A stretch of DNA of 64,000 bases from a virus. Each line of letters opens with the position of its first letter. The stretch's first letter is position 1. The DNA lies in the IMG/VR virus record IMGVR_UViG_3300042691_032685, positions 5,530 to 69,529 of that record. One strand, given 5' to 3'. Position numbers and translations under genes: made by a program. Positions 50,290 to 64,000 of the stretch are shown here, piece by piece. Below the pieces are notes generated by a model. That model ran no database searches, had not been told where the DNA came from, and saw nothing but the letters and a program-made list of their open reading frames with translations.

Positions 50290-52314
50290 TCAAGAAGTAA
50301 AGCGCCCTTGACGATTAATGCGTTGACGTAAAGGCTGCGAAGAGCCTAACGCAGAAATTTGCCTTTCTTCCATCATTTTATCAAGAAAAGCTTGCGCAGC
50401 TTCTGGACCTTGTTCTTTTTGTAAACGCAATAGTTCAGAAGAAACATTCAGGGATTCTGTTGCTGCTGCTTTGGGTGTTGGTGGCTGGCTTCCATATTTT
50501 TTATAACCGCCGCTAGCTCGCGTTGGTTTTACCATGGCCTCTTCCGTGTATACAAAGCCCTCTGGTGTTTCAGTTTCAGGAGCGTCTAAACCAGGAATAA
50601 ATTTTCTTGGTGTTGTAATACCACGAGTTTCTCCTTCATTTTTAATTTCTTTTGCTGCTTCTACAGCTCCTGCGCCAAACACAGGTGTTCCTGCGCGACC
50701 GCCCGCTTGCTCACCATAAATGCCATAACCAGGGCGACCAATCACACCCCGATAACTTGTTTTAGAGGCTGGAGAAATCATGACGCCTCTACGCACTTGA
50801 CGCGGTTCACCACGCAGTTCACCAGGATCAACTTGTTGCTCTAAGAAACCACCTTGCTCTAAAGACTCAAGTCGACCTGATTTGGAGGACATCTCCTCTG
50901 TGAAACGTTCAGCAGCTGTAATGTCACCATAAGCTTTTAAGCCAGGCTGACTCATTACATCTTCTGGAGAATAAGTTGGCAATAATACTTCAAGAGCTTC
51001 CTGCTGGCTTGGTGTAATTTGAACATTACGGCGTGCACGAGCTTCGTTTAAACCACGCTCCATTGCATTAGCAATCTGCAAGTTTTTGCTAGTTTCGAAT
51101 TCAGTTAACTTTGCAAGTGCAGTTTCGGGAGTTAATGGAACTGCAGGAGAAGCAGGAGTAAAACGAAAACCTTCTGTTAAGCGTCCGGCTGGCAAAGCAG
51201 TGTACCTCGCAGGCAACCCAGCGATGCGACCTTCAACAGGAGTAATTTCTAAGCCTCCACGGCGAACAACGTTTGAAACTCCACCATGGGCTGGAGTAAA
51301 TGTGACAAGATCTTCTGCGCTTGTACCAAGAGCTCCTGGGAAACGGCCAATATTTTGTGGGTCTTCAGCAGATGCTGGATATTTAGCAATTAAAGAAACG
51401 GGCGTAGGCGTTTGATATCTTGAAACTGTTTTTGCACGCTGCTGCAAAAGTGGTCCAGGTGATAGAAATTGTTTTTCAGTAGCAAAGTAAGTTAAATCTG
51501 TTTGATCAACGGGAACACCGTCTGGTGTCATTGATGCAGCAACGTTTGCGCTTCCCGTTTGCCGAGCAACACTATTGACTTCTGCAAGATCCAAGTCTTC
51601 ATTGCGTTGCGTACCACGCATGGTTCGGCCAGTGATTTGATCTTCTCCGGATTCCAGGGCACCAATGGTTTGTGCTACAACGATGGCAGCGTCTTCCTGG
51701 CGTTGTTGCGCAAAATGCAAAAGATCTTGCGTTGCTTGCTCACGACGTGCAGCCGCAACTTCTTTTGAGACCGGACCAAAGCGTTGATAGTTGATATCCT
51801 TGGGATCTGGACGATATTGAGGTAACGTTCCTAAATTGGCAAGGATTTTACTGGTACGAGACGGAGCATTTAATGCTTCCATCTCAAATACCGTAGGCTC
51901 TGGGAATTTTTCTGCTAATTGACGCCCGTACTGCGCCATTGCTTCTGCTTCTGTTGGAATTAAGCTGCGAGGAGCAATTTGAGACGGTGCAGGCTCCGCA
52001 ATTTTTGCAACATTAACGTCACGTACGTCCGCTTTGCTTAAATCAGTGAGGGTAATGCCGCCTTTTCGTCCACCAACTGGAGCTTTGCCACCAAAACCCC
52101 TGCGTGCTGCAAGGCCAAGACCAATTGCTCCTAGGCCCAGGGCTGCAAGACCTGCGATGGTTGGTAAGGAAGAGCTTGATTCCTGTTGACGGAGTTGATT
52201 TTGGCGGAACTCACGCACTTGCGGCGTTAATGCTGCCCTTTCTTCTGGATCTTCTGGGTATGGGATACCAGCAGCTTGGCTATAGGCGGCAAAATCGGCA
52301 GGAGATAACGCCAT
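50290..52314 (-). CDS. Large putative internal virion protein
   Basis: MALSPADFAAYS start, one TM, long low-complexity body. Confidence 0.65.
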   Translation of the reverse strand: MALSPADFAAYSQAAGIPYPEDPEERAALTPQVREFRQNQLRQQESSSSLPTIAGLAALGLGAIGLGLAARRGFGGKAPVGGRKGGITLTDLSKADVRDVNVAKIAEPAPSQIAPRSLIPTEAEAMAQYGRQLAEKFPEPTVFEMEALNAPSRTSKILANLGTLPQYRPDPKDINYQRFGPVSKEVAAARREQATQDLLHFAQQRQEDAAIVVAQTIGALESGEDQITGRTMRGTQRNEDLDLAEVNSVARQTGSANVAASMTPDGVPVDQTDLTYFATEKQFLSPGPLLQQRAKTVSRYQTPTPVSLIAKYPASAEDPQNIGRFPGALGTSAEDLVTFTPAHGGVSNVVRRGGLEITPVEGRIAGLPARYTALPAGRLTEGFRFTPASPAVPLTPETALAKLTEFETSKNLQIANAMERGLNEARARRNVQITPSQQEALEVLLPTYSPEDVMSQPGLKAYGDITAAERFTEEMSSKSGRLESLEQGGFLEQQVDPGELRGEPRQVRRGVMISPASKTSYRGVIGRPGYGIYGEQAGGRAGTPVFGAGAVEAAKEIKNEGETRGITTPRKFIPGLDAPETETPEGFVYTEEAMVKPTRASGGYKKYGSQPPTPKAAATESLNVSSELLRLQKEQGPEAAQAFLDKMMEERQISALGSSQPLRQRINRQGRFTS

Positions 52315-52435
52315 TGGATATTTATGAGCTATAAATTTCTTGTTATTTGTATTTTAAGGGGAAGAATTTAGAAAAATACGGTATACGGTAGACTATTACC
52401 AAGAAATAACAACGCTGTTAAAGGAAAAAGCGGCA

Positions 52436-52645
52436 ATGAACCCTAAGAACCGCATGGAAAAAGCAATTGCATTAACTGCGATTGCTGATGCAGCCGACAA
52501 ATTAAGTTCGGAAGGTGTTGATGATATGGAAGTTAAGAACTTTATTCTTGGTGCACGTAATAAACTTGCGGAAGAACGTCCAGATCCAGAGAATTACGCC
52601 AAGGCAACCGTTGCGGCGTCCCGTTGGGGCAAGCAAAACCTGTAA
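52436..52645 (+). CDS. Hypothetical protein
   Basis: ORF followed by terminator. Confidence 0.6.
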   Translation: MNPKNRMEKAIALTAIADAADKLSSEGVDDMEVKNFILGARNKLAEERPDPENYAKATVAASRWGKQNL

Positions 52646-52675
52646 ATCAAATAACAAAAGTAAGTTTTAAGTACA

Positions 52676-52701
52676 GCCGGGGATAAAACCCCGGCATTTT
52701 T
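52676..52701 (+). terminator. Rho-independent terminator
   Basis: GCCGGGG-ATAAAA-CCCCGGC-ATTTTT. Confidence 0.8.
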
Positions 52702-53115
52702 GTCTGTTTTCTTGGGCAAAACCCTCGACATACCTACACTTTTTACAAAAGACCGGCCCTATATAGGCCAAAAAAGGGAATAGAATTTGCTGACGCTTCT
52801 CCACCACCCCCCGCGAAGGGGAATGTGTATAGAAAAAAAAGAAAGGAGGGGGTACCCCTATTAAATGAGCTGGAATTTGGAGGAGTATAACACGAACTTA
52901 ACTGAATTTGAGACGAAGATCTTATCAATGTCTCTCTAATTGTTATGATTTCGTGACAAACTCCTCCTATAGTCCGGCATATAAGGGGCAAATCTCCCCG
53001 TCACAATAGGCTTCATGTAAGACAGTAGCTTTGATTAGCTGACGACAGTAGCTCAGTTGTATCACAACAACAGCTCTGACGGAACGAAGCAAGTGCCTTT
53101 GTTTCTACATCAATC

Positions 53116-53142
53116 AACGTCAAGCTGGACGTTAAACGTAGC
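53116..53142 (+). ncRNA. H-type pseudoknot motif, copy 1 (divergent)
   Basis: AACGTC/GACGTT stem, loop GCTG pairs with TAGC after the AAACG linker. Confidence 0.5.
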
Positions 53143-53166
53143 AACGTTACATTCCACTTCAACACC

Positions 53167-53346
53167 ATGAACATTTACTGCACCATCAGCACCACAACAG
53201 CTGTCTACTTCTTCGTGGTTAACCACAACATCAACCTTGCACGTATCACTAAGCAGATCCGTAAGGGTCAGAAGGGATACGACTGCAGCACCACGATGTC
53301 AGTGGATCAAGCACGTAAGTTTGCTAAGCAGCTTCAAGCCAGGTGA
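53167..53346 (+). CDS. Early hypothetical protein, 59 aa
   Basis: Manual ORF MNIYCTIS...QLQAR. Confidence 0.6.
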   Translation: MNIYCTISTTTAVYFFVVNHNINLARITKQIRKGQKGYDCSTTMSVDQARKFAKQLQAR

Positions 53347-53405
53347 GTGATAGCTCCCATGCCAGGTGCAATGCCTGGCTCTGGTTATTGCCACAATCAG
53401 TGGCA
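53337..53405 (+). ncRNA. tRNA-elbow-like three-way junction + hairpin, copy 1
   Basis: AGCCAG/CTGGTT; GAG-TGATAG-CTC; GCCAGG-TGCAATG-CCTGGC; TGCCAC/GTGGCA. Confidence 0.6.
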
Positions 53406-53421
53406 TCTACTTCACACCATC

Positions 53422-53628
53422 ATGACACTACTTGAAATTGCTAACAAGGTTATGGCAAACGATGAGCTTGGTTCCGTGCCTGTGTACGGTGCCGATGCTC
53501 AATGGTTTGTTACCCAGTTCCAGGAGGTGATCAGGCTTTATCCCGAAGCGGAAGCTTGGGATGAACACAAGATTTACACAGCTATGTGTTTTCTTTACCT
53601 CATGGATCCTGAAGATTTCGTTAGCTGA
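53422..53628 (+). CDS. Early hypothetical protein
   Basis: ATG after AC-rich leader. Confidence 0.6.
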   Translation: MTLLEIANKVMANDELGSVPVYGADAQWFVTQFQEVIRLYPEAEAWDEHKIYTAMCFLYLMDPEDFVS

Positions 53629-53692
53629 TCCGTTAAAGCGGGAGGCAGGGTGCAATCCCCTGCCCAGTTATTGCCAGGTCATCAGGCCTGGC
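53622..53692 (+). ncRNA. tRNA-elbow-like three-way junction + hairpin, copy 2
   Basis: TAGCTG/CAGTTA; TCCG-TTAAAG-CGGG; GGCAGGG-TGCAATC-CCCTGCC; GCCAGG/CCTGGC. Confidence 0.6.
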
Positions 53693-53715
53693 TTATCAAT
53701 CACACCATACCAATC

Positions 53716-53895
53716 ATGAACGAGTCAGCATTTGCCGCACTGATTGTTTGGGCTTTCTCTCTTGGCACTGTCCCTCTTGTTGCCATGCATTTCATTGACA
53801 AGGCAACAGCAGATCAGTGCAAGAATCATGAGTGGCCCAAGCATCGTGACCAGATCCACCGTGACTGGTGCATCGGCAACGGCTACAAGATCTGA
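53716..53895 (+). CDS. Early small membrane protein
   Basis: TM then QC..HEWP...DWC. Confidence 0.6.
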   Translation: MNESAFAALIVWAFSLGTVPLVAMHFIDKATADQCKNHEWPKHRDQIHRDWCIGNGYKI

Positions 53896-53919
53896 GTTCA
53901 TTCATTACTATTCATTGCC

Positions 53920-54153
53920 ATGATGATCTATCAACCCAAGTACGAGCATCTGCACAGAGTCGTATGGTACGGAGGTGAGTCCACTCAACTGCACTTCGAG
54001 AAGAAGGTTGCAGGTGAATGGAAGGACATCGACGTACGCACACTCGGCTCTGGGCTACCAGATGGAGTCAAGCAGCTCTATGAAGAGATGCGTGACTATC
54101 TCGACTACTGCATCACACAAGACTACGACTCACTTATCGGTACTATCTTCTGA
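53920..54153 (+). CDS. Early hypothetical protein
   Basis: ORF. Confidence 0.6.
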   Translation: MMIYQPKYEHLHRVVWYGGESTQLHFEKKVAGEWKDIDVRTLGSGLPDGVKQLYEEMRDYLDYCITQDYDSLIGTIF

Positions 54154-54156
54154 ATC

Positions 54157-54363
54157 ATGACTAACAATCACATGTTTGATTCTGTTATTGCCATCACACT
54201 TGGCACAGGACTTGGCATGATTCTTTCTGTCATCGGACAGAAGGCACTTAACAAGCATTACATCAACACATGCCACGACAAACCAGGTCATAACCTGGTA
54301 CTAACACGTGGCTTTCTTGGCGATACCTACTTCTGTATCAACAGTCAGTACATCGTCAAGTAA
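54157..54363 (+). CDS. Early small membrane protein
   Basis: N-terminal TM, Cys pair. Confidence 0.6.
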   Translation: MTNNHMFDSVIAITLGTGLGMILSVIGQKALNKHYINTCHDKPGHNLVLTRGFLGDTYFCINSQYIVK

Positions 54364-54364
54364 G

Positions 54365-54440
54365 ACTCCTGCACTTAACCCTTCCATCTAGTACGTATGT
54401 ACTACGACGGTGGGTTTTCTGCAGGACTCAACATCCTGTA
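54365..54440 (+). ncRNA. Structured intergenic element, family C copy 1
   Basis: Long interrupted hairpin then TGCAGGA-CTCAACA-TCCTGTA. Confidence 0.5.
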
Positions 54441-54463
54441 CATCAATTCAACTCAGCTCAACC

Positions 54464-54847
54464 ATGTTCTCTAACACCATCATTGGCAACGTTACTTACA
54501 TGGAAATTGCGACCCATGAGGGTCGTGAATTCCTTGCAATTACAGTTGCAGTCAATGATACCTACGACAGATCCTGTCGGATTAAATTTAACAATTCCAA
54601 TGGATTGTTAACTGCCTATCGCAACGGTACGTTTGTGATAGGACAACAACTTATCCTCAGTCAATATGACGTACGAATCTCTAGCATCCGTACGCATTAC
54701 ACCAAGGACAATCAACTCCTTCCACTCAAGTATCCTGAGATTGCACTGACGAATGTCCGAGCAACCATCGGTTCTTCACCTAAGCCCAAAGCTTTGGTGG
54801 AATCCAGGGCACAAGTGGAACCTACCCTGGAAGAAATTCCTTTCTGA
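54464..54847 (+). CDS. ssb: Single-stranded DNA-binding protein
   Basis: OB-fold pattern TIIGNV...ITVAVN and acidic EEIPF tail. Confidence 0.7.
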   Translation: MFSNTIIGNVTYMEIATHEGREFLAITVAVNDTYDRSCRIKFNNSNGLLTAYRNGTFVIGQQLILSQYDVRISSIRTHYTKDNQLLPLKYPEIALTNVRATIGSSPKPKALVESRAQVEPTLEEIPF

Positions 54848-54850
54848 CAG

Positions 54851-54901
54851 AGCTCTGCTCTAAGGGCCTTCGGGCCTTTACTGCAGGACTCACCTCCTGC
54901 A
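54851..54901 (+). ncRNA. Structured intergenic element, family C copy 2
   Basis: TAAGGGCC-TTCG-GGCCTTTA then TGCAGGA-CTCACC-TCCTGCA. Confidence 0.5.
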
Positions 54902-54919
54902 TCCATCACATACAACACT

Positions 54920-55123
54920 ATGCAACACACAACCAGGCTCGGACGAAACCGTTACATCAGACTTGATTCGTACGGTCAGTCTCTCCAAGCACGACGTACG
55001 AATTTCATCTGCGCTCTCTTCGTCATTGCCATCTCGGTTATGACGGCATGCGCAATGGTTGGCGTCGACCTCACAAACATCAACACTCAAAGCAATGGGA
55101 CTACACATCGCACTGGTCGCTGA
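54920..55123 (+). CDS. Early small membrane protein
   Basis: One TM. Confidence 0.55.
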   Translation: MQHTTRLGRNRYIRLDSYGQSLQARRTNFICALFVIAISVMTACAMVGVDLTNINTQSNGTTHRTGR

Positions 55124-55322
55124 TCTCACTGGGCGTTATGCCCACGTCTGGGGCAACGCACGTACCTTCAAGCAATTCTCTGATCAGCTCGAAGACATCG
55201 GCTGCGAGGTGATCGAGGATCAAAGCATTGAATGGGACGGCTGCACCAGAGATGAGATCGCAGAGGACTGCCTGTCAGTCCATCAACTCCTCAACGACTC
55301 TGACTTCGTACCCCACGACTAG
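55095..55322 (+). CDS. Early acidic protein
   Basis: ORF MGLHIAL. Confidence 0.55.
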   Translation: MGLHIALVADLTGRYAHVWGNARTFKQFSDQLEDIGCEVIEDQSIEWDGCTRDEIAEDCLSVHQLLNDSDFVPHD

Positions 55323-55419
55323 TGTCCCGTAAGACCACGACACTACGGCTGGTACTTGCATCCCTGTACGTACCAGCTATTCTCTATCTGCATCCATCGC
55401 ACTCACTCCAATCAAAGCC

Positions 55420-55917
55420 ATGGAACCCCTCAGCCAACTCGACGTTCAAAGTCCTGACCATGTCTCTGTCATCACTCGGGATGGCAAGATTACTGTCTCA
55501 GTAACCAAGGACGGAGCATCAGTCACACTGGGCTTCCCCATCAAGAACGTCTTCAACACCACTCCCCCCGTCCCCCTTCAACAGCCGGCACCACAGATGA
55601 TGGCTGTTAAGGAGGCTGATTCCAGAGCTAAGTATGAACGAGAAGCAGGCCTTGCCTATCTCGAGAAACTTGCTACCAAGGATCAGAGGGTTACAACTAA
55701 TCAATCACCGAAGAAGCTTGTACCGCATGTCGGTAACTACAAGCTCAACAATGAGTCTGTACGTGAGATTAAACTCATGCTGTCTGATAAAGACATCATG
55801 AATAAGTTCAAGTCACGTCAGCAAGCTTACGAAGAGATTGCACGTGTGTACAACGTAAGTCACCACACAATCTCCAATATTCACAAGGGTACATCCTGGA
55901 CCCACGTGAAGATCTAA
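55420..55917 (+). CDS. Protein with C-terminal HTH
   Basis: KLNNESVREIK...EIARVYNVSHHTISNIHKGTSW. Confidence 0.65.
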   Translation: MEPLSQLDVQSPDHVSVITRDGKITVSVTKDGASVTLGFPIKNVFNTTPPVPLQQPAPQMMAVKEADSRAKYEREAGLAYLEKLATKDQRVTTNQSPKKLVPHVGNYKLNNESVREIKLMLSDKDIMNKFKSRQQAYEEIARVYNVSHHTISNIHKGTSWTHVKI

Positions 55918-55947
55918 CTAACGCAGTAGTACATACTTACCATTCAT

Positions 55948-55975
55948 GGACCTGAGTATGTCCTTAAACTGCTCA
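55948..55975 (+). ncRNA. H-type pseudoknot motif, copy 2
   Basis: GGAC-C-TGAGTA-T-GTCC-TTAAAC-TGCTCA. Confidence 0.7.
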
Positions 55976-55997
55976 ATCCTTTTATCTAATTCAAACC

Positions 55998-56147
55998 ATG
56001 ACTCAACTCGACAACAACTACGAGGCTGACTTGCTTGACGCCATGGCTGATCGTGCAGACGAACTAGAAGAAGCCATGCGTGAAGCAGATCAATCCGAAT
56101 TTCAACTCATCGAACCAATGGAGGACTTTCACGATGACCAAAGCTAA
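55998..56147 (+). CDS. 49-aa highly acidic early protein
   Basis: Manual ORF MTQLDNNYEADLLDAMADRADELEE... Confidence 0.6.
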   Translation: MTQLDNNYEADLLDAMADRADELEEAMREADQSEFQLIEPMEDFHDDQS

Positions 56148-56234
56148 GCACATACAACAAGATGACATCGACATCATTCTGCATGTCCTTGTCATCATCT
56201 CAATTCTCATTGAAATCCTCATAGACGCACTCAA

Positions 56235-56603
56235 ATGTCTTACGTCTCTGAACTCCGCAAGTTCTACCCACGCACTTGGAAAGCAAGACTTGCCATCCAA
56301 AGGTATCAAGTCCACCAAGAGTGGGAGTACCAAGACCCAACAACAATCACCATCCATGAAACGACGCTCAACTACGGCGGTCCAGAGGAAGGTGGCTGGT
56401 GGTACCAAGCAGGACTCCCAGTCCTCACCCACTGCGTCTTCTCCAAGAAGCAAGCAGTCCAAACCTTCATCCAGTACTACGACGAATATGAGATCGCCGA
56501 GCAACCAAGCCTCGGCATCTCAACGACGTACTCAAACTACGAAGTCAACTTCTCCAATGACTTCGCTAAGGTCTACCCTCAATCCAAACCACACTACTGC
56601 TGA
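56235..56603 (+). CDS. Early hypothetical protein
   Basis: YGGPEEGGWWY...P..KPHYC. Confidence 0.65.
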   Translation: MSYVSELRKFYPRTWKARLAIQRYQVHQEWEYQDPTTITIHETTLNYGGPEEGGWWYQAGLPVLTHCVFSKKQAVQTFIQYYDEYEIAEQPSLGISTTYSNYEVNFSNDFAKVYPQSKPHYC

Positions 56604-56872
56604 TGACACTCACAGCCACACCACCCGTTGGACTGAGCATCAACCAACGGAACCTTTACATGTACTTCCTGAACCACAGGAAGAAGTACAAGAACACACC
56701 GTGTTACGTACCAAGGTGTCCCGGTCAAAACTCAAGGGTTGAACAATATCTCAACGCACTGATCAAGCTGGAACAATACGGCTTGATACGTGTAGACAGA
56801 AGCAGTGCCAACTACACAAGTTGGATCATGCTTCCACCAAGACTGGCCCATGACTGTACAATACTTCCGTAG
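56603..56872 (+). CDS. Winged-helix-like early protein
   Basis: LSINQRNLY...LIKLEQYGLIRV. Confidence 0.55.
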   Translation: MTLTATPPVGLSINQRNLYMYFLNHRKKYKNTPCYVPRCPGQNSRVEQYLNALIKLEQYGLIRVDRSSANYTSWIMLPPRLAHDCTILP

Positions 56873-56920
56873 TATATTCGCTATTTGCGAATGGCGAATA
56901 CATGCCAATACATCAGTCAT

Positions 56921-56968
56921 AGCCTGGGCTTTACCGACGTAAGTACGGTATGTAAGTCCCAGGTTTTA
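56921..56968 (+). ncRNA. Structured intergenic element, family B copy 1
   Basis: CTGGGC-[hairpin]-TAAGTCCCAGGTTTTA. Confidence 0.55.
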
Positions 56969-56992
56969 CTGTCACTTCACACCAAACAACTC

Positions 56993-57229
56993 ATGGAACA
57001 AGCCAAGTCCTACCCAACCATTGACTGGAAGAAGAATGAGTACCACCAGCTGAAAGAGGTGGTAAACCTTCTGAAAGCAATCCAAGAACGTGAGAGCAAG
57101 CGTCATGAAATGGATGCACATCTCAACTATCAAACCGCTGATGTCATCACAGAAGTGATTGGCATGCTTGAAGATGAGATCGACTACGATCCAACACCTC
57201 GATACGATCCAAGCCTGGCAGGCATCTAA
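56993..57229 (+). CDS. Early hypothetical protein
   Basis: ATG after AC-rich leader. Confidence 0.6.
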   Translation: MEQAKSYPTIDWKKNEYHQLKEVVNLLKAIQERESKRHEMDAHLNYQTADVITEVIGMLEDEIDYDPTPRYDPSLAGI

Positions 57230-57234
57230 GCAAT

Positions 57235-57273
57235 CCCCCACACCCCCGCAGGGAGTACCAGGGGGATCCTTTT
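57235..57273 (+). terminator. Probable terminator
   Basis: TCCCCC...GGGGGA stem then CCTTTTAT. Confidence 0.45.
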
Positions 57274-57369
57274 ATATACATAAGAACTATCTATGTATAA
57301 CCTTTACTTATCCACCAATCAATCCTTGACATCCCTGATAGACTTCATCAGTTACTCAACTCAACACCA

Positions 57370-57579
57370 ATGACCAAGCCCAACACTCCTCGCATACCAG
57401 ACTCTCTGGATATGCAAAGACTTCAAGCCATGCAATTAGTTGCACGCATGAAGGAAACATCAGATCGTCTCGGAATGGGATTCATCGGGGGCTTTATATC
57501 CCCCGATGGACAGAAGTTTGTTATGACAAACATGGACGACGACGATTCCCAAGCACTCCTACCAGACGATCTCAAATGA
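57370..57579 (+). CDS. Hypothetical protein
   Basis: ORF. Confidence 0.6.
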   Translation: MTKPNTPRIPDSLDMQRLQAMQLVARMKETSDRLGMGFIGGFISPDGQKFVMTNMDDDDSQALLPDDLK

Positions 57580-57664
57580 TTACTTGGCAAGTAACAATCA
57601 TTATCATTGTTAGTATTTTGTGCTTCACAATTACTCTCAATGAAATCATTCACAAGTTACTCAA

Positions 57665-57862
57665 ATGACTAAGAAATCACTCATTAGTTTTGATCGCACC
57701 ATTCATGGTGTGAACATCACCGAACACGGTGTCAAATCACTGACCAAAGCAATCAAGCTTGGTCCATTCCAGCTAACTCTCAACGCCAATCCCAATGGCG
57801 TCAAAGGATCAGTCAGTATCCCTGGCACTGGACTAAGCATTCCAAACATTAAATTAATCTAA
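57665..57862 (+). CDS. DUF4236-like small protein
   Basis: LGPFQLTLN...SVSIPGTGLS. Confidence 0.5.
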   Translation: MTKKSLISFDRTIHGVNITEHGVKSLTKAIKLGPFQLTLNANPNGVKGSVSIPGTGLSIPNIKLI

Positions 57863-57864
57863 AG

Positions 57865-57928
57865 AACTGGGCGTCTGTACTCGTTGTGCAAACAGCACAG
57901 AAGGAGACAGTATAAGTCCCAGGTTTTA
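57865..57928 (+). ncRNA. Structured intergenic element, family B copy 2
   Basis: CTGGGC-[longer hairpin]-TAAGTCCCAGGTTTTA. Confidence 0.55.
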
Positions 57929-57949
57929 TCCACCTACTCAACTCAGCTC

Positions 57950-58135
57950 ATGTCTGCTTACTACGACAACATCAACTTGTTTGATCGAATTAATCTTGCT
58001 GCCTGCGCTATGCGCAGAGCACAAGACAACATACTTGATGAACAACGTTTTCATGGCGAGTTTAAAACTGCTCGCCTATGGAACAAGTACAAGTGTGTCA
58101 TTACCAAGTCTTATTCCTACATCGATGAAGGCTAA
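57950..58135 (+). CDS. Early hypothetical protein
   Basis: ATG after AC-rich leader. Confidence 0.55.
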   Translation: MSAYYDNINLFDRINLAACAMRRAQDNILDEQRFHGEFKTARLWNKYKCVITKSYSYIDEG

Positions 58136-58395
58136 TGACTAACTACTGTTCAGTCCTTGCTATCGAAGACACTCAATTCACCGACACTCATGTCACTGTT
58201 ACAGCAGTTGTTGACGAAATGCGCCTGCTCTATCGGGCGACTTATCTCGATCCTGAAGAGTGGGCTCCAGCACTTTGTACAACAACTATCGAATTGGATC
58301 CAGACGAACCAATCCCTCTTGACGAAGATGGCTTCGCTGAGTATCTTGATCGGCTCGATCCACAGTGGCAACTTGTTGACACCTCAGACGAATGA
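58135..58395 (+). CDS. Acidic early protein
   Basis: ORF, TAATG coupling. Confidence 0.6.
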   Translation: MTNYCSVLAIEDTQFTDTHVTVTAVVDEMRLLYRATYLDPEEWAPALCTTTIELDPDEPIPLDEDGFAEYLDRLDPQWQLVDTSDE

Positions 58396-58522
58396 TTGGA
58401 TTCTCAATTGAATTCAAACGTTGGTACTTTGTACTACGTGGTCCTAAAGGTCGTGTCTATTTAGCTACGGGCTTTACACGTTACAACCCATACGTTAAAG
58501 AAGTTCCAAATCTTTAACATAT

Positions 58523-58550
58523 CGTCCTGGACATGACGTTAAACTGTCCA
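58523..58550 (+). ncRNA. H-type pseudoknot motif, copy 3
   Basis: CGTC-C-TGGACA-T-GACG-TTAAAC-TGTCCA. Confidence 0.7.
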
Positions 58551-58570
58551 TTAACAATATCTATCCACCA

Positions 58571-58840
58571 ATGAAACACTGGCTTTCATTACTCGCACTT
58601 AACTTCCTCATTGCACTTCCAGCACACGCACAGTGGGCTATGACATGTACCAGAGACCCTGGTTCATCTGTCAACCTACGCAACGGTCCATCCAAGAACA
58701 ACACAGTCATTGCCTCCATTCCAGACAGTCAATACCTCAGGGCATTGGACTGGGTATGGGGCGGTGACCAAATGCGTTGGTACCGTGTTGAATACAACGG
58801 TCTTGTTGGCTGGATGCGTTCTGACTATCTCTGCCGATGA
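58571..58840 (+). CDS. Secreted SH3b-domain protein
   Basis: Signal peptide (PAHA), VNLRNGPS...WYRVEYNGLVGWMRSDYL. Confidence 0.85.
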   Translation: MKHWLSLLALNFLIALPAHAQWAMTCTRDPGSSVNLRNGPSKNNTVIASIPDSQYLRALDWVWGGDQMRWYRVEYNGLVGWMRSDYLCR

Positions 58841-59238
58841 CAAAGAAGATTATTCTTGGTATCGCCGCCCTCATTGGTTTCATCATTGCCTGTGCTGGTG
58901 TAGCCACCATGCAAATGGTCATGGGTTCATTGATACCAGACAATAAGCCTGATCCAGATGGCAAACTTGAACCTGATCCTCAGGAGAAATCCAAACAGGA
59001 ATGGGAAGCCAAACTTAAAGAGACTGGTCAAACTACAAGTGCAACCAAGGAAGAACCTGTAAAGCAGCAGGAGCAACAGCAGGAACCTTCACCTACTGTA
59101 GTTGAGCAACCTGCTCCACCGCCACAGCCTGTAGCTCCGCCACCTCCACCTCGCATTCAAAGTACTGGCCCTGGCAACTTTGATGCACCACCTGCATACT
59201 ACCCACCGCCTGCGCCTACGGGTCCAGGCAATATGTAA
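58837..59238 (+). CDS. Membrane-anchored proline-rich protein
   Basis: N-terminal TM, poly-Pro, GPGN repeat. Confidence 0.65.
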   Translation: MTKKIILGIAALIGFIIACAGVATMQMVMGSLIPDNKPDPDGKLEPDPQEKSKQEWEAKLKETGQTTSATKEEPVKQQEQQQEPSPTVVEQPAPPPQPVAPPPPPRIQSTGPGNFDAPPAYYPPPAPTGPGNM

Positions 59239-59241
59239 CTT

Positions 59242-59982
59242 ATGAAACTTCCAATGATTGCATTAATCTCATCAGCCCTTGGCATTGGTTCTGCTATTGC
59301 AGTTAACCAAGTCAATAACATGATTGCACATCACAATGAACAACAAGATCACTTGCGTTCATTGATGTATACACAACCATTAGAACAAGGGCCTGGAGAT
59401 GTAGCTCGTGCAATTCCTGATGGGATGCTTCCATTAGATGCCACACCAACTCCTGGTTCACTGCCAGAGCCTGGCTCTGATCGTCCTTTGATTCAACTCA
59501 AGGATGGTGTACCAGTGCCTGTGATCCCTAAACGTCCATCAGCAAAGCTGCTGCTGATTCGCACCAAAGAAACCGTTAAGCAAACCAAAGATCCAATCTG
59601 GAAACTACAGTTGGTTGCTAACGGTCAAGTCCTGGACAGCATGCCTGCTCTAACAGGACGTGCCTCTAAGCAAACGGCGAATCGCAACATTGCTGGCAAC
59701 AAATCACCATTGCCCATTGGTACATACTCCATCGATAGGTACGGCATTGCCCGTGCACCATTTGATGATCCAGAACTTGGCAAAGGATTCTGGGTACCAG
59801 TGATTCCTTTGTTCAATACCAATCGTTCTGCCCTTGGCTTCCACCAAGATCCAAGCTGGGGCAAACTCAACGGTGAGTCCGGTACCAGTGGATGCATTGG
59901 TCTGGAATCACCAGAGGCCACAGCAAAGCTGCTGGAATGGATCAAACATTACAACATTCAATTGTTATCAGTTGAATCGTAA
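59242..59982 (+). CDS. L,D-transpeptidase (YkuD-like)
   Basis: LPIGTYSI, LGFHQD...GTSGCIGL (His/Cys). Confidence 0.8.
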   Translation: MKLPMIALISSALGIGSAIAVNQVNNMIAHHNEQQDHLRSLMYTQPLEQGPGDVARAIPDGMLPLDATPTPGSLPEPGSDRPLIQLKDGVPVPVIPKRPSAKLLLIRTKETVKQTKDPIWKLQLVANGQVLDSMPALTGRASKQTANRNIAGNKSPLPIGTYSIDRYGIARAPFDDPELGKGFWVPVIPLFNTNRSALGFHQDPSWGKLNGESGTSGCIGLESPEATAKLLEWIKHYNIQLLSVES

Positions 59983-59989
59983 TGACATC

Positions 59990-60018
59990 ACGTCCTGAGC
60001 ATGACGTTAAACTGCTCA
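59990..60018 (+). ncRNA. H-type pseudoknot motif, copy 4
   Basis: ACGTC-C-TGAGCA-T-GACGT-TAAAC-TGCTCA. Confidence 0.7.
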
Positions 60019-60047
60019 ACACTACGAACCAACTACGAACTTGACTC

Positions 60048-61754
60048 ATGCATTTCCAACTTCCCTCCAACCTGCAACAAGAACTCCTGGCTTATGACCC
60101 AAAGCTCAAGGCTTTGGCTAAGCAAGCAGAGAACAAGAAGCCTGCGAAGAAAGCCAAGTATCCCCTTGGCAACATCCCTCATCTCATTCCTGAAGATGTC
60201 GTACGCTCTAGCTACCAACAGACTGCAATTGATCACATCAATGCACAGCTAGCACCAGGGCGTTTCCAATTGTTTACCAAGCTTGTGGATGTAGCAACCC
60301 CACAAGCACGCACTGTACCTATTGCTATCCTCTATCACTTCGAGCAATGCTGGTACGCAGCATGGCTACCTCAACGTGGTAAAGACTATCTCTATGGCTA
60401 TGCCTATGCATTTAAAAACACCTCAGCTGCTGCTAAAGCTGTACCTCACAGCATCTGGAACAGTAAAGATCATTGCACTGAACACAACATTGGTCGTGGT
60501 TCACAGGTCTTTACTTACTCAGCAACAGTAACAAAGCAAGACATCATCAATGGCAAAGACGGTCGCAACTGGCGTGCCATGGGTGTTGCTAGTTACTACC
60601 AGAAAGCTCGTGATATTAACGAGGCAATCAATAAATTTGAATCACAGCTGATGACAACTATTCCTCAATGGAGTGACTGTCGCAGCATCTTTGAACGTCT
60701 ACGTTGCAACAATCTTATTGATGCACTTGAAATGCCTGCATTCTTTAGCAAGCCTATACCTGATAAAACCAAGTATCAACTTACTGTTGATAACTTAATT
60801 GCAACATCTAAGCTGCTTAAGAATGACTATGGTTATTCTTCCTACGGTACATGCTTAACTAAGACCGAAGCAATCATTACCACTCCGTATATCAAGAAGC
60901 AGCTTCAAGCAATGCTTGATCGTTCAACTACTGAGTACAACAACCCAGAGAATACACAACGCAAATCTATTAAATACGGCTTCAAGGAATTTGAGCAGAC
61001 ATGTAACTCTATCGAATTTATTACTCGCATCTGGCCTGACTGCCCCGTCGATCACTACCGCACATACTTCGATGAATTGCGTTGCATCAACCTAAATCAC
61101 TTTAGATATGACGAACGTCTAATTGAATGGTTGCGCCAGCACATGCCTGTTGCATCCTTCTTCAATATGCTACGCAAGTTCAATGAAGTAGAACCTCTTT
61201 ATCCTCGTACTTCATTTAGTGACTATGACTATCATGTCAAATCATACTTTGAGATGAATGACACCTTCTCCATGATCATGCGTGTCCTGGAGAGCGGCAA
61301 GGAACTGGAGGCACCCAAGCGTTGGCGTATGCCTGACTTCCATGACTACGTGCAAGCCGAAGCATGGAAGGTAACCAACCGTAAGGAGGCTCTGCACCAG
61401 GATCTGTTCCCTGCTCCGATCAAAGTCAACATCAGCGGCAGTGATTGGACATTCTTCCAGCCAGTCGACACTCATCAGCTGGCACAGTGGGGACAAGCAG
61501 TACGCAACTGTGTTGGCTCTGCATCCAGGTATGCAGAAGACATCAAGAAACGTAAACACTTCATTGTGCTTTGCATGATTGATGGCAAGCCGACCTTCAC
61601 GATCCAGCTGGATGTATCCATGGGTGTCATGAACGTTGTTCAGATCTCAGGTGTTGCCAACCAACGCCTCACTGATGAGCAACGTGAGCAATACTCACAA
61701 GCATTCAAGCAAGCCTTGCAATCTCGTGAAGCTGAGCTAAGCTCTAACAGCTGA
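60048..61754 (+). CDS. PcfJ-domain protein
   Basis: FHD...QLAQWGQAVRNCVG...FTIQL...QISG..N. Confidence 0.75.
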   Translation: MHFQLPSNLQQELLAYDPKLKALAKQAENKKPAKKAKYPLGNIPHLIPEDVVRSSYQQTAIDHINAQLAPGRFQLFTKLVDVATPQARTVPIAILYHFEQCWYAAWLPQRGKDYLYGYAYAFKNTSAAAKAVPHSIWNSKDHCTEHNIGRGSQVFTYSATVTKQDIINGKDGRNWRAMGVASYYQKARDINEAINKFESQLMTTIPQWSDCRSIFERLRCNNLIDALEMPAFFSKPIPDKTKYQLTVDNLIATSKLLKNDYGYSSYGTCLTKTEAIITTPYIKKQLQAMLDRSTTEYNNPENTQRKSIKYGFKEFEQTCNSIEFITRIWPDCPVDHYRTYFDELRCINLNHFRYDERLIEWLRQHMPVASFFNMLRKFNEVEPLYPRTSFSDYDYHVKSYFEMNDTFSMIMRVLESGKELEAPKRWRMPDFHDYVQAEAWKVTNRKEALHQDLFPAPIKVNISGSDWTFFQPVDTHQLAQWGQAVRNCVGSASRYAEDIKKRKHFIVLCMIDGKPTFTIQLDVSMGVMNVVQISGVANQRLTDEQREQYSQAFKQALQSREAELSSNS

Positions 61755-61802
61755 TGCCACAGCAGGGGCGTCCTATCCTCGTTAAAGGGCGCCTCTTTAA
61801 CC

Positions 61803-62021
61803 ATGAAACACACCGATGAACAGCTACTTGCTATGGCATTAGCTAACCTTGGTGACTACATCCACGACAACTCACCTCAGTACGTATTGATCGAAGACGA
61901 TCCACGCAACGAGGATGACTACGATAGCTGGACTTACGGAATGGAAGTCCTGCCTCATGATCACACTTGGCAGTCAGATGCAATTGACGTAAGTCCAAGT
62001 GATGCAGACGTGACGGAATAG
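61803..62021 (+). CDS. Acidic hypothetical protein
   Basis: ORF; last 18 nt overlap the tRNA. Confidence 0.55.
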   Translation: MKHTDEQLLAMALANLGDYIHDNSPQYVLIEDDPRNEDDYDSWTYGMEVLPHDHTWQSDAIDVSPSDADVTE

Positions 62022-62090
62022 GTATACGTAACGCACTTAAAATGCGTCGGGCATTTGCCCTTGCGGGTTCGACTCCCGCCGTCTGCACCA
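62004..62090 (+). tRNA. trnL: tRNA-Leu(UAA), intronless, CCA encoded
   Basis: GCAGACG/CGTCTGC acceptor, ACGCA-CTTAAAA-TGCGT anticodon arm, long variable arm, GCGGG-TTCGACT-CCCGC. Confidence 0.95.
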
Positions 62091-62110
62091 ACCACACTCA
62101 ATTCAACACC

Positions 62111-62473
62111 ATGCAATTCTTTGCTGCCTTCAAGTCCCTCATCCCTGAGTTTCATGCTTATGCGGATGATGACAACCGCTACAACCTAGGTGCTACCTGG
62201 ACCAGCTCCGATGGTTTGCGTGACTACCACAATCTCGAGATGCGGTACGTCCATAACTCTGAGCGTCTTGCGCTCCAGGGGGAACCGCAACCTGATGGAA
62301 GCTGGCGCTACGTTGAACCCAACGGCGCTGTTCACACCATCTCACCAGAACGTGCTAAGCACTTCATGGAACAGACCAGAGCACACGCCACACTCATGGT
62401 TGGCATGCTCGATAAGCTTCGTGAGTCAGGGGTCCTAGACGAGCCCCTAGACACCACTGCAGAAGCTGCCTAA
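62111..62473 (+). CDS. Hypothetical protein
   Basis: ATG 20 nt after the tRNA CCA. Confidence 0.65.
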   Translation: MQFFAAFKSLIPEFHAYADDDNRYNLGATWTSSDGLRDYHNLEMRYVHNSERLALQGEPQPDGSWRYVEPNGAVHTISPERAKHFMEQTRAHATLMVGMLDKLRESGVLDEPLDTTAEAA

Positions 62474-62491
62474 GATCTACTCGGAATGTTC

Positions 62492-62520
62492 GGCCCCTGC
62501 ATCAGCGGGGGTCTTTTCTT
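62492..62520 (+). terminator. Probable terminator
   Basis: GGCCCCTGC-ATCA-GCGGGGGTC-TTTTCTT. Confidence 0.65.
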
Positions 62521-62521
62521 C

Positions 62522-62845
62522 ATGATCTCAGAATCAATTGTCTCCAAAGATGTAACAGAACTTATCGCTGATTGTATTCCTGACGAACAATGGGAACGCG
62601 TCTGCCAGTTCATGGTAGAGAAGATTGTTGACAACATGCCATCTGATGTCATGACAAAACTCACAGGCAAATGCGATGCATTTGAAACTGCTGAGCAACT
62701 TCTTAACGCGTTCTACAAAGATGCACCAAAGAATGAACTCATCAGAGATTCTTTCAAGTTACTTGGTGCTGAACAAACTGCTTACTATCTTGACTCCCTG
62801 AACCTCAATTCAACTGATGGCCTTTCAGAAGCCAATCCTTCCTGA
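62522..62845 (+). CDS. Hypothetical protein
   Basis: ORF. Confidence 0.6.
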
Positions 62846-63167
62846 TTGTCCTGAATGCAAGCAACCTGGGTTACGAGTCATTGAATCCAGGAAGACAGCT
62901 GATGCCACACGTCGTCGCAAAAAATGCGAGTGCTGTGGTATCCGCTTTACAACTTATGAAGTATCTGCTGATTTTTACAACGAAGCACAGCAGAACTTGA
63001 TCTTGGTCTCTAAGCTTTATGCGTTGCTAAGCGGTAACGCTTTAGCATCTCAACCAGCGATCATCAAATGCAAAGACTGCTCTCATAACCAGGGCGATGC
63101 TTGTGCATTTGAATTTCCTGAATACGACACCACTGATTCCTACGACTGCAATCACTATGACAACTAA
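62817..63167 (+). CDS. NrdR-like zinc-ribbon protein
   Basis: CPEC...VIESR...[17 protein letters not shown]; second Cys cluster instead of ATP cone. Confidence 0.75.
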
Positions 63168-63456
63168 GCGTCAATTCACTTATGCCGTTGGTGATCGCGT
63201 AGCGGAACGTCCCAAGGCTCATGGCATCTTTGCTATTCGTAACGAAGTTAAAGAACGTATTGCTCAATACCGCAGCCAGCGGTACGGCAATGTTCTGAAC
63301 ATCGTTGAAAAACCAAATAGCCTTGGCCGCAAACAAAAGTTCTTAGTGATCCAATGGGATCACCTGGTATCACCAACAGAACACGCTACGATGCGTATCT
63401 GTCCAGCATCAGAACTCCAGCGTCTGATGAAAGAAGTCATTGTTCCAGGGGAATGA
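63157..63456 (+). CDS. Hypothetical protein (SH3/KOW-like)
   Basis: YAVGDRV...G.V...VIQWD. Confidence 0.55.
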
Positions 63457-63457
63457 G

Positions 63458-63664
63458 ATGGATGAACGAACTGAGATGATCATCCGAGCTGTTGCAACTT
63501 CTATTGCAATCCTTGGATTCATGATTCTTACCTACGCAGTTGTTGAAAACAATGCTGAACCCGTAGAAAAGTTTAAGTTTGTAGACAGGTACAAGAATTG
63601 CGACGTGGTCAGGTACACTGACCCGAGCAATGAATGGCATTACCTACTGCACTGTGATCAATGA
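63458..63664 (+). CDS. Small membrane protein
   Basis: TM then [12 protein letters not shown]. Confidence 0.55.
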
Positions 63665-64000
63665 ACACTGAACTTATTTGGGTCACACCCAATGCAGAAG
63701 AGATGATTGTCAAGATGGCTCGGGTCTCTGCACCGAGTAATCAAGACAATATGGATACAGCACCACGCCTGCTTAAGTATCTGATTAAGCACAAGCACTG
63801 GTCACCATTTGAAATGGGAAACATGTGCGTTGAGATTGAAACCACGCGTGCAATCTCACCACAGATCTTGCGTCATCGTTCATTTTCATTTCAGGAATTT
63901 AGTCAGCGCTACGCAGACATCAGTGATATCGGCAGCATCACACTGCCGCACCTACGTAGCCAAGACTACAAGAACAGGCAGAACTCCAACGACGATCTCA
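63661..64000 (+). CDS. thyX: Flavin-dependent thymidylate synthase, runs off the window end
   Basis: [27 protein letters not shown]. Confidence 0.95.

Follow-up and report, generated by a model that had tools for sequence, protein, structure and literature searches.

An uncatalogued family of 28-nucleotide RNA pseudoknots placed between genes of tailed phages

Among described RNA elements, the -1 frameshift pseudoknots of luteovirids (beet western yellows virus/sugarcane yellow leaf virus, BWYV/ScYLV, type) offer a close architectural parallel to the element reported here. They are likewise H-type folds of ~28 nucleotides (nt); in both, loop 1 is very short and contains a conserved C, the junction consists of one base, and loop 3 is rich in A and ends in an AAAC-like sequence next to stem 2. 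The present element recurs in the right-hand 64 kb of a 69.5-kb linear viral record of IMG/VR (IMGVR_UViG_3300042691_032685, positions 5,530 to 69,529); this whole stretch is hereafter called the window. The element exists in two forms. Type A differs from the luteovirid pseudoknots in that its long stem is stem 2 (S2, 6 base pairs, bp), whereas type B, with a stem 1 (S1) of 5 bp and an S2 of 3-4 bp, is the form nearest to them in its proportions. In contrast to the luteovirid case, the phage pseudoknots lie neither within overlapping open reading frames (ORFs) nor behind a slippery heptamer; a stop codon, a tRNA end or a non-coding RNA precedes them instead, and their hosts are bacteria and the phages of bacteria.

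Other described systems share part of these traits. The preQ1-I riboswitch (RF00522) is also a minimal H-type pseudoknot with an A-rich tail and conserved junction bases that lies 5' of genes, but the phage element matches no model of it, has no link to queuosine genes, sequesters no Shine-Dalgarno sequence and has a long and apparently constitutive S2. The exoribonuclease-resistant RNAs (xrRNAs) of flaviviruses and plant viruses fold without protein, stop processive nucleases and delimit a stable RNA on their 3' side. The phage knot, for which such resistance is hypothetical, resembles them as a small protein-independent folded RNA that could halt a nuclease; it differs from them in having no evident ring-around-the-5'-end topology, in being much smaller and in occurring in genomes without an RNase J match. 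The triple helix and mascRNA of MALAT1/MEN-beta likewise place a triplex-type structure a few nucleotides 5' of an RNase P substrate, an arrangement seen here in the phages Molivia and NMeng1 and in many type B contexts. Most copies of the phage element, however, have no downstream tRNA (one lies within 300 nt in 9 of 224 type A contexts), and the A-tract/U-rich architecture of the expression and nuclear-retention element (ENE) is absent. Finally, the T7 intercistronic RNase III sites and the T4-type promoter-early stem-loop (PeSL) cassettes are short structured elements repeated at mosaic gene boundaries and are thought to set segmental mRNA stability; these are simple hairpins specific to one phage lineage and its host, whereas the phage knot is one pseudoknot sequence across many phyla.

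Fold and conservation of the type A pseudoknot

Three canonical type A copies are encoded on the + strand of the window. Copy 1 (55948-55975; GGAC-C-TGAGTA-T-GTCC-TTAAAC-TGCTCA) scores 43.3 bits (E 9e-10) with a covariance model built from 142 family members. Its S1 pairs 55948-51 with 55960-63 (GGAC/GUCC) and its S2 pairs 55953-58 with 55970-75 (UGAGUA/UGCUCA, including one U.G pair); loop 1 (L1) is C 55952, loop 2 (L2) is U 55959 and loop 3 (L3) is UUAAAC 55964-69. Copy 2 (58523-58550; CGTC-C-TGGACA-T-GACG-TTAAAC-TGTCCA; 50.3 bits) combines an S1 of CGUC/GACG with an S2 of UGGACA/UGUCCA. Copy 3 (59991-60018; CGTC-C-TGAGCA-T-GACG-TTAAAC-TGCTCA; 51.9 bits), which had been placed one base early, at 59990, in the initial annotation, has the same S1 and an S2 of UGAGCA/UGCUCA and is the most frequent variant of the type A family. 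Among the three copies the stems change in a compensatory manner, GGAC/GUCC being exchanged for CGUC/GACG in S1, and UGGACA/UGUCCA, UGAGCA/UGCUCA and UGAGUA/UGCUCA replacing one another in S2. A degenerate 28-mer recovered both CGTC copies in the window and had no match in 100 shuffles; a looser core, CCTGNNNATGNCNTTAAACTGNNCA, gave exactly three forward, no reverse and no control matches in the whole 69.5-kb record. After the three copies, the next-best match of the covariance model in the window scored 12.1 bits. Four 28-nt copies had originally been annotated. The count holds for these three, whereas the fourth, at 53116, annotated at the time as a shorter variant, reaches only 9.3 bits with the type A model and is therefore not a canonical copy; it represents instead the conserved sister form, type B.

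The type A consensus, NGWC-C-UGRGYA-U-GWCN-UUAAAC-UGYYCA, spans 28 nt and comprises an S1 of 3-4 bp, a single C as L1, an S2 of 6 bp, one junction base that is usually U, and a loop of the form NNAAAC. Across 101 non-redundant members, 97.0% of cells pair, compared with 85.4% in shuffles, none of 500 shuffles reaches the observed value, and slid controls of the alignment are 21-44% paired. All four base pairs that the search pattern had left free covary in these sequences: pair 3-14 is UA in 61, AU in 32 and CG in 7; pair 8-26 is AU in 69 and GC in 28; pair 9-25 is GC in 76, AU in 18 and CG in 3; and pair 1-16 occurs as six pair types and is unpaired in 22. The outer S2 pairs, which were fixed in the pattern, switch as well (CAAGCA/UGCUUG in Synechococcus phage S-EIVl). 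Since pair 10-24 is a U.G wobble in 28 of the 101 sequences, only a fold of the sense strand fits. Judged from these alignments, the H-type pseudoknot fold of type A, with both stems kept by compensatory change as initially proposed, can be regarded as secure.

The loops are conserved in a comparable manner. A complementary scan of IMG/VR, in which the commonest stems were fixed and all loops left free, returned 79 stretches. L1 is C in 77 of them; L2 is U in 61, A in 11, C in 6 and G in 1; and L3 is UUAAAC in 51 and another NNAA[A/U]C sequence in 27, the one remaining stretch (L181) having an unrelated loop and being rejected as a member. Because this loop-free scan still gives C5 and AAAC, the loop conservation is no artefact of the search pattern. 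The linker UAAAC, first described as invariant, is indeed unchanged in the window, where all type A copies carry UUAAAC, but across the family near-invariance is limited to AAAC. When contexts with similar flanks were dropped, 137 remained; in these the information content is 1-2 bits within the 28 nt and <0.3 bit per position directly outside, and both flanks are G-poor. As far as the aligned sequences tell, the element is autonomous and sharply bounded.

Nearest-neighbour energies of the single helices are weak (-2.9 to -5.4 kcal/mol; S2 alone -3.4 to -5.4 kcal/mol), which fits a reliance on tertiary contacts and the strict conservation of C5 and AAAC. The proportions of the element correspond to the textbook geometry of compact H-type knots and to that of the luteovirid frameshift pseudoknots, which base triples stabilise. 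By analogy with the latter, we infer that the conserved C and AAAC form base triples that would lock a compact 28-nt triplex knot: the single C would cross the deep groove of stem 2, and the A-rich loop would run back along stem 1. The architecture of frameshift stimulators, namely an L1 of 1-2 nt containing C, a junction base and an A-rich L3, was found in the 101-142 aligned members.

Distribution and the type B sister form

A virome pattern search, suggested at the outset as a check, found the type A core pattern in at least 125 IMG/VR stretches, and the homologues covary; by our own estimate, ~2-3 matches are expected by chance for 18 fixed bases. Among isolates, the covariance model detects six copies in S-EIVl and one each in SA13, phiEF-1.1, NMeng1 and Labelle, and it confirms type A in ParMal1, S-H35, Edson, Molivia, D6E, Mwe-JY13 and Javan271. 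Searches by blastn with short variants yielded ~85 further Staphylococcus phage records and added crAss-like phages, roseophage SIO1, Lentibacter, Celeribacter and Lactobacillus phages, and the Arthrobacter Amigo cluster. The known range of type A covers phages of Staphylococcus, Lactobacillus, Streptococcus, Geobacillus-type hosts, Bacillus, Mycobacterium, Arthrobacter, cyanobacteria and Rhodobacterales, crAss-like phages, and also genomes of candidate phyla. A scan of 185,579 species genomes gave 46 loci with 49 instances, 48 of which retain at least three of the four free pairs. These loci belong to Bacillota, Bacteroidota, Saccharibacteria, Omnitrophota, Planctomycetota and Desulfobacterota-like bacteria, with one in a gammaproteobacterial metagenome-assembled genome (MAG) and none in Enterobacterales. 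A blastn search of 5,426 complete E. coli genomes with the commonest 31-nt variant, which would detect near-identical copies only, found no match. Further candidate members were rejected: a partial match in a Vibrio phage (15.7 bits), a match in Acinetobacter Acj61 that falls within gene 32, and a Chitinophaga locus (L231) that retains two of the four free pairs.

Rfam 15 has nothing at any site at E<=10 in window positions 52000-64000 and nothing on the element at E<=1 in 20 family loci, and keyword and sequence-string searches of the literature did not find a description of the motif. The supplementary tables of a catalogue of >10,000 viral candidate RNAs (PMC10690425) may list it unnamed. 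Type A is an uncatalogued and very widespread family of tiny sense-strand RNA pseudoknots, which occurs in tailed phages, in prophages and in a few bacterial leaders.

The type B pseudoknot of the window (53117-53142, + strand; ACGUC-AA-GCUG-GACGU-UAAAC-GUAGC) has a short S2. Its S1 pairs ACGUC 53117-21 with GACGU 53128-32, its S2 pairs GCUG 53124-27 with UAGC 53139-42, and its loops are AA (L1) and UAAACG (L3). The first rightward ORF has this knot in its 5' leader, 24 nt upstream of the ATG at 53167. In nine related contigs this leader is kept as ACGUC-AAGCUG-GACGU-UAAAC-GNAGC, with exchanges in S1 between CG and GC and between UA and CG. In total, type B was found in at least 119 viral stretches, and S1 covaries there also. 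The 3-nt strand of S2 that had been left free reads GCU/AGC in 94 of 104 contexts; three of the others are double compensatory (ACU/AGU twice, GAU/AUC once), three have a wobble and four are mismatched. Types A and B have a common S1 consensus and a common UAAAC loop, and the order B, A, A is shared by contigs syntenic with the window. Type B was not found in isolate phages; matches in Klebsiella and in Arthrobacter phage Soondubu were rejected, as they lie inside coding sequences. Two observations concern the surroundings of type B. A conserved sequence, agacaactcggcggtcggtcacgaccttggcatccac, recurs 3' of the knots (L290, L294, L303, L313, L316, L320, L336 and others) and has no Rfam match, and tRNA arrays have a small hairpin, with UUUACAGAA as its loop, between tRNA and knot.

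Placement between RNA units

The element is autonomous and sharply bounded, as far as the alignments tell, and lies between units at ribosome- and RNase P-sized margins. For these reasons we tentatively favour a reading in which a self-folding triplex pseudoknot would mark and insulate the boundaries of RNA units and would block end-dependent decay. On the 5' side, an upstream ORF is present in 125 of the 137 non-redundant contexts, and the spacer between its stop codon and S1 is exactly 5 nt in 31 of these, 6-9 nt in 29 and <5 nt in two. A stop triplet stands at spacer 5 in 45 of the 137 contexts, against 7-16 at neighbouring offsets, and among the stop positions that the reading frame permits, those nearest to the knot prevail (5 nt, 45 contexts; 6 nt, 13; 7 nt, 10). 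In the window, the 5-nt spacing is found at two of the three type A copies (copies 2 and 3). The edge of the ribosomal entry channel lies five nucleotides beyond the codon in the A site; with the spacer matching this distance, a ribosome at termination would just come into contact with the knot and leave it folded. On the 3' side, the next start usually follows 20-29 nt past the knot, with gaps clustering at 20, 22 and 28 nt. The window falls in this range: direct reading of the sequence gives distances of 22, 20 and 29 nt for copies 1 to 3, which together with the 24 nt of the type B site agree with those initially annotated. In Firmicutes, the start lies ~60 nt past the knot, after a second hairpin and a Shine-Dalgarno sequence. 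In the scaffold-gene leaders of this group (L208:2530-2590, L211:2535-2595, L229, L232, L235, L248 and L266), the second hairpin is conserved as CGUGG-6 nt-CCACG and is followed by a UAAAAC-like A-rich sequence and the Shine-Dalgarno sequence.

The strongest rival to a boundary mark is a ribosome-directed role, in which the knot would act at the level of translation as a roadblock or landmark controlling termination, post-termination sliding or re-initiation. The sharp 5-nt peak corresponds to the mRNA entrance of a ribosome with the stop codon in its A site, the same ~5-nt spacing applies to frameshift and readthrough stimulators and to the ribosomal helicase site, and the architecture shared with luteovirid frameshift knots argues in the same direction. 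We nevertheless consider such a role unlikely, since the same knot precedes units that are not translated (tRNAs, hammerheads, GIR1-like cores and other structured RNAs) and is also found in leaders without an upstream ORF, for example at the 53117 site. Among 213 contexts with strand calls, an opposite-strand upstream gene is combined with a same-strand downstream gene in 12 and the reverse in four; these 12 contexts and the 53117 copy in a first-gene leader indicate that the element needs no upstream ORF. Moreover, the flanks examined contain no slippery X XXY YYZ heptamer 5-9 nt upstream, a stop codon standing there instead. Readthrough would not fuse the ORFs on either side, since gaps of 20, 22 and 28 nt do not keep the frame, and the Firmicutes start, ~60 nt away behind an extra hairpin, also speaks against the idea.

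A group of bacterial leaders bears directly on this rival. In 12 bacterial loci (L224, L226, L227, L238, L239, L242, L246, L251, L252, L261, L262 and L263) from Omnitrophota, Planctomycetota, Desulfobacterota-like bacteria and Syntrophomonadaceae, a tiny ORF reads up to or into a type A knot. It has ~16-39 codons with the pattern M..R..(L/I)RP(V/I)AHC(K/S/G)EG(C/H) and its own Shine-Dalgarno sequence and promoter; some of these promoters carry an inverted-repeat operator. The last conserved Cys/His codon is always located 7 nt 5' of S1, and the ORF stops 4 nt before the knot or at an in-frame UAG, UGA or UAA within it. The genes that follow encode Rrf2 regulators, a CDF transporter, Tpx, SurE and others. 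The peptide matched no NCBIfam family, and from its sequence the arrangement looks like a Cys/His-rich leader peptide system. On a translational reading the knot would pause the ribosome on a sensing peptide, which is favoured by the fixed 7-nt distance and by the two of the 12 loci in which the next gene begins only 7 nt past the knot, an arrangement that looks like coupling.

The genes around the element are mosaic. In 162 contexts, the proteins encoded 5' of the element form 93 clusters and those encoded 3' of it another 93; no particular class of gene accompanies it, and co-inheritance with the upstream and with the downstream gene is symmetric. In the annotated isolates examined, type A knots are all co-oriented with their flanking genes. 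In SA13, phiEF-1.1, Javan271 and D6E, the knot lies between the portal or minor-head gene and the scaffold and major capsid genes; this placement is seen in four separate Gram-positive phage lineages, at a point where expression must step up. Knots of S-EIVl precede the gene for single-stranded DNA-binding protein (SSB) and other replication genes. The initial comparison with the T-even gene 32 pseudoknot is not borne out by gene order: a place before an SSB gene fits only one of the six S-EIVl copies, no copy in the window precedes such a gene, and the Molivia knot follows one (SSB stop, 8 nt, knot, 3 nt, tRNA). This diversity also makes a ligand-sensing riboswitch of the preQ1-I/SAM-II architectural type improbable. 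The H-type fold with its A-rich 3' loop and the conserved junction bases C5, U12 and C22 do recall small pseudoknot aptamers. Yet the element precedes 93 unrelated downstream clusters as well as tRNAs and ribozymes, and no Rfam riboswitch model matches, SAM-II and SAM-V included (window 52000-64000; 20 family loci). It also has no expression platform, its 3' S2 strand contains no Shine-Dalgarno sequence, the start is 20-60 nt away, and the full 6-bp S2 should form without ligand. The observation made at the beginning that a preQ1-I/SAM-II ligand-binding consensus is absent agrees with this, no Rfam family matching at E<=10.

The element also adjoins structured RNAs. Knots end 3-8 nt before tRNAs and 0-2 nt before ribozymes; in NMeng1 the knot lies 6 nt 5' of a tRNA. 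A tRNA lies within 120 nt in 25 of 117 type B contexts, and all 67 tRNAs found there share the strand of the knot; type B ends 4-8 nt 5' of a tRNA in 11 contexts and begins either 1-5 nt or ~31 nt after a preceding tRNA. With a triplex-type knot a few nucleotides 5' of a tRNA, RNase P cleavage would leave the knot at the new 3' end. In one viral locus (L202:330-392), a type II hammerhead follows 2 nt 3' of the knot (32.9 bits, E 5e-4, against a gathering score of 37), and GIR1-like ribozyme cores are flush against the knot in five loci. At the same position after the motif, L156 carries CUGAUGA...CGAAAC, which is probably a hammerhead too. The five GIR1-like RNAs (L032, L035, L044, L064 and L128, all unrelated viral contigs) align along the entire lariat-capping model RF01807 with 15-29 bits (E 5e-4 to 2.5), well short of its gathering score (100). 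The core blocks AUGGGGUU, CAAAACGG, UUCCGUnCUA, GAACGnCnAGAGnCUACACGG and GCAUCC are retained, and the 5' edge of each RNA has the pseudoknot where the model has its P2/P2.1 arm. GIR1-like ribozymes are otherwise not known outside eukaryotic rDNA introns. A further arrangement is seen on a Bacteroidetes MAG contig (L244, L245), where ~3.5 kb contain four knots, each with a hairpin on its 5' side and an identical structured sequence of ~50 nt (UAGCAAUUAGCC-hairpin-...CCCCUCAUGGGG) on its 3' side, forming a small-RNA array.

Such neighbours would also suit a processing signal for a universal RNase, or a self-cleaving mini-ribozyme, that makes the downstream 5' end or releases a small RNA. Diverse contexts, several copies per genome and neighbouring ribozymes and tRNAs are the typical ecology of small self-cleaving ribozymes, and the element combines all of these with strongly conserved loop nucleotides and no link to a gene class. 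In tRNA arrays, moreover, processing of the tRNA ends on both sides (gaps of 1-5 nt after and 4-8 nt before) would excise the knot. We regard this reading as doubtful, somewhat more so than a ribosome-directed role. No base is conserved at -1 or +29, and no natural self-cleaving class is known to be as small as 26-28 nt. The pistol, hatchet, twister, HDV and hammerhead models have no match on the element, Hammerhead_II and the GIR1-like matches lying beside it. RNase P recognizes a G1-C72-like first pair and an RCCA tail; the element has neither, its first pair being mostly C-G and its tail UUAAAC.

A role in transcription, as a nascent-RNA pause or terminator with a U-run or as a put-like modifier of RNA polymerase, appears less probable still. 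A T-rich run (>=6 of 9 bases) follows 32 of 224 copies, and a universal partner such as RNA polymerase would explain conservation across phyla, but the other 192 copies have no such run. In Firmicutes prophages the knot stands directly after a terminator, not before it: a terminator hairpin with a T-run abuts its 5' edge in 12 of 224 contexts, and two end-protecting structures would there lie back to back. In addition, its position midway through the late operon is wrong for an antiterminator loaded at the operon start, and the spacing to the stop codon has no transcriptional rationale. An intrinsic terminator in particular was rejected, given the 32 of 224 T-rich runs, an S2 of -3.4 to -5.4 kcal/mol and same-strand genes that continue beyond the knot.

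We also weighed a site at the DNA level, either a promoter with TAAACT as its -10 box or an operator of interleaved inverted repeats, and consider it very improbable. TAAACT fits TAnnnT, the block is sharply bounded and lies shortly 5' of genes and tRNAs like the promoters of phage polymerases, and TATAAT boxes occur 15-17 nt after a few copies. It is pairing, however, and not sequence that is kept, and the U.G pairs found in 28% would turn into A-C mismatches if the opposite strand were the one to fold. The upstream sequence shows no conserved -35 or other box (<0.3 bit per position), the region has seven promoter-like sites against 11.3 expected, and the element occurs in phages both with and without an RNA polymerase of their own. 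Upstream ORFs avoid overlap with it by a ribosome-sized margin, and bacterial leader ORFs are translated through it. A 'TAGACT' box upstream of the element in S-EIVl-like contigs was rejected as a signal, as it encodes the conserved C-terminus (..DLD*) of one upstream protein family.

The window itself derives from a cyanophage-like virus. Besides a terminase and a primase, it codes for a portal-like virion protein, a major head protein and tail fibre proteins, and S-EIVl is its sole nucleotide-level relative among isolates. From 53167 on, numerous small ORFs run rightward, and all genes beside the knots lie on the + strand. Copy 1 is preceded by an HNH-like ORF (55420-55917) whose stop codon TAA (55915-55917) lies 30 nt 5' of the knot, and is followed by an ORF (55998-56147, MTQLDNNYEADLL...) whose N-terminus recurs behind the motif in related contigs. 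This 49-aa ORF is overlapped in a different frame by a 220-aa ORF (56080-56742); the pair could be two genes, a frameshift or a sequencing error. Copy 2 lies between an ORF at 58392-58517 (stop TAA 58515-58517, 5 nt 5' of the knot) and one at 58571-58840, which encodes 89 aa with a hydrophobic N-terminus and a bacterial SH3_3 domain. Upstream of copy 3, a YkuD-domain ORF (59242-59982) ends in the in-frame tandem stops TAA TGA (59980-59985), the second of which is 5 nt 5' of the knot. The YkuD L,D-transpeptidase-domain protein and the small SH3_3 protein are cell-wall-related and unusual for the early region of a phage. Downstream of copy 3, the ORF at 60048-61754 encodes a 568-aa protein with a PcfJ-like C-terminal domain, and orthologues of this protein (MQFQLP...) follow the motif in many related contigs. 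Its leader is G-poor and without a Shine-Dalgarno sequence; between the knot and the ATG, window positions 60021-60040 hold a tandem ACTACGAAC repeat (60021-29 and 60032-40), and similar CUACGAAC/CUCCGAAC repeats are present in the same leader of many related contigs. A tRNA-Leu (anticodon TAA; 62004-62090, + strand; ARAGORN, Rfam 58 bits) lies 3' of the PcfJ-like gene.

A proposed boundary mark and its implications

By its placement, the knot is transcribed inside a polycistronic RNA between independent RNA units and sits as near to its neighbours as their ribosome-sized and RNase P-sized margins permit. Under the reading of the element as a boundary mark, folding without protein in any context would keep the flanking units from mispairing, and a base-paired, triplex-stabilised block would face exonucleases or end-dependent nucleases arriving from either side. 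Within a single transcript, stability and expression level would then be set separately for the downstream unit, be it a scaffold-capsid mRNA, early genes, tRNAs or ribozymes, and for the 3' end of the upstream unit.

Several points weigh against this reading. With single helices as weak as those calculated above (-2.9 to -5.4 kcal/mol), the barrier would rest on the tertiary contacts proposed. Conservation across phyla exceeds what a barrier or insulator obviously needs, which hints at a conserved partner or chemistry. RNase J, stalling of which had been considered initially, loses ground: TIGR00649 was over the family cut-off in one of five motif-bearing genomes and not in the other four, with the incompleteness of MAGs as a caveat. 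RNase J is thus not a universal target, and a block to 5' exonucleases is not the whole story. At the 12 bacterial loci in which a tiny ORF reads into the knot, the obvious interactor would be the ribosome and not a nuclease, and some copies, to judge from the 32 followed by a T-rich run, may act as terminators. The evidence as a whole speaks against a classic riboswitch, against a promoter and against a block specific to RNase J.

A bolder and rather unlikely extension would see the A and B knots as a universal, protein-independent punctuation of phage transcripts that stops nucleases or ribosomes where one unit adjoins the next, analogous in the bacterial world to viral xrRNAs and to the MALAT1 triple helix. 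Within tRNA arrays, the RNase Z and RNase P of the host would set the knots free as abundant small aptamer RNAs, whose target in trans would be conserved host machinery such as the ribosome, RNA polymerase or a defence nuclease; alternatively, the knot would be the smallest natural self-cleaving motif.

The family thus presents one 28-nt sequence-structure motif across many phage groups that is absent from Rfam 15 and from the literature searched, with a breadth of conservation that is normally seen only in riboswitches, ribozymes and tRNA-like elements. Its position in well-studied Gram-positive phages just ahead of the scaffold and capsid genes, where expression must step up, and also between tRNAs, makes testable the question of how different expression levels arise within one phage operon without promoters. 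If the knot is a portable, context-independent stabiliser or insulator, it would be an attractive part for synthetic operons; should it prove to be self-cleaving or to bind a conserved host machine, it would represent a new class of functional RNA.

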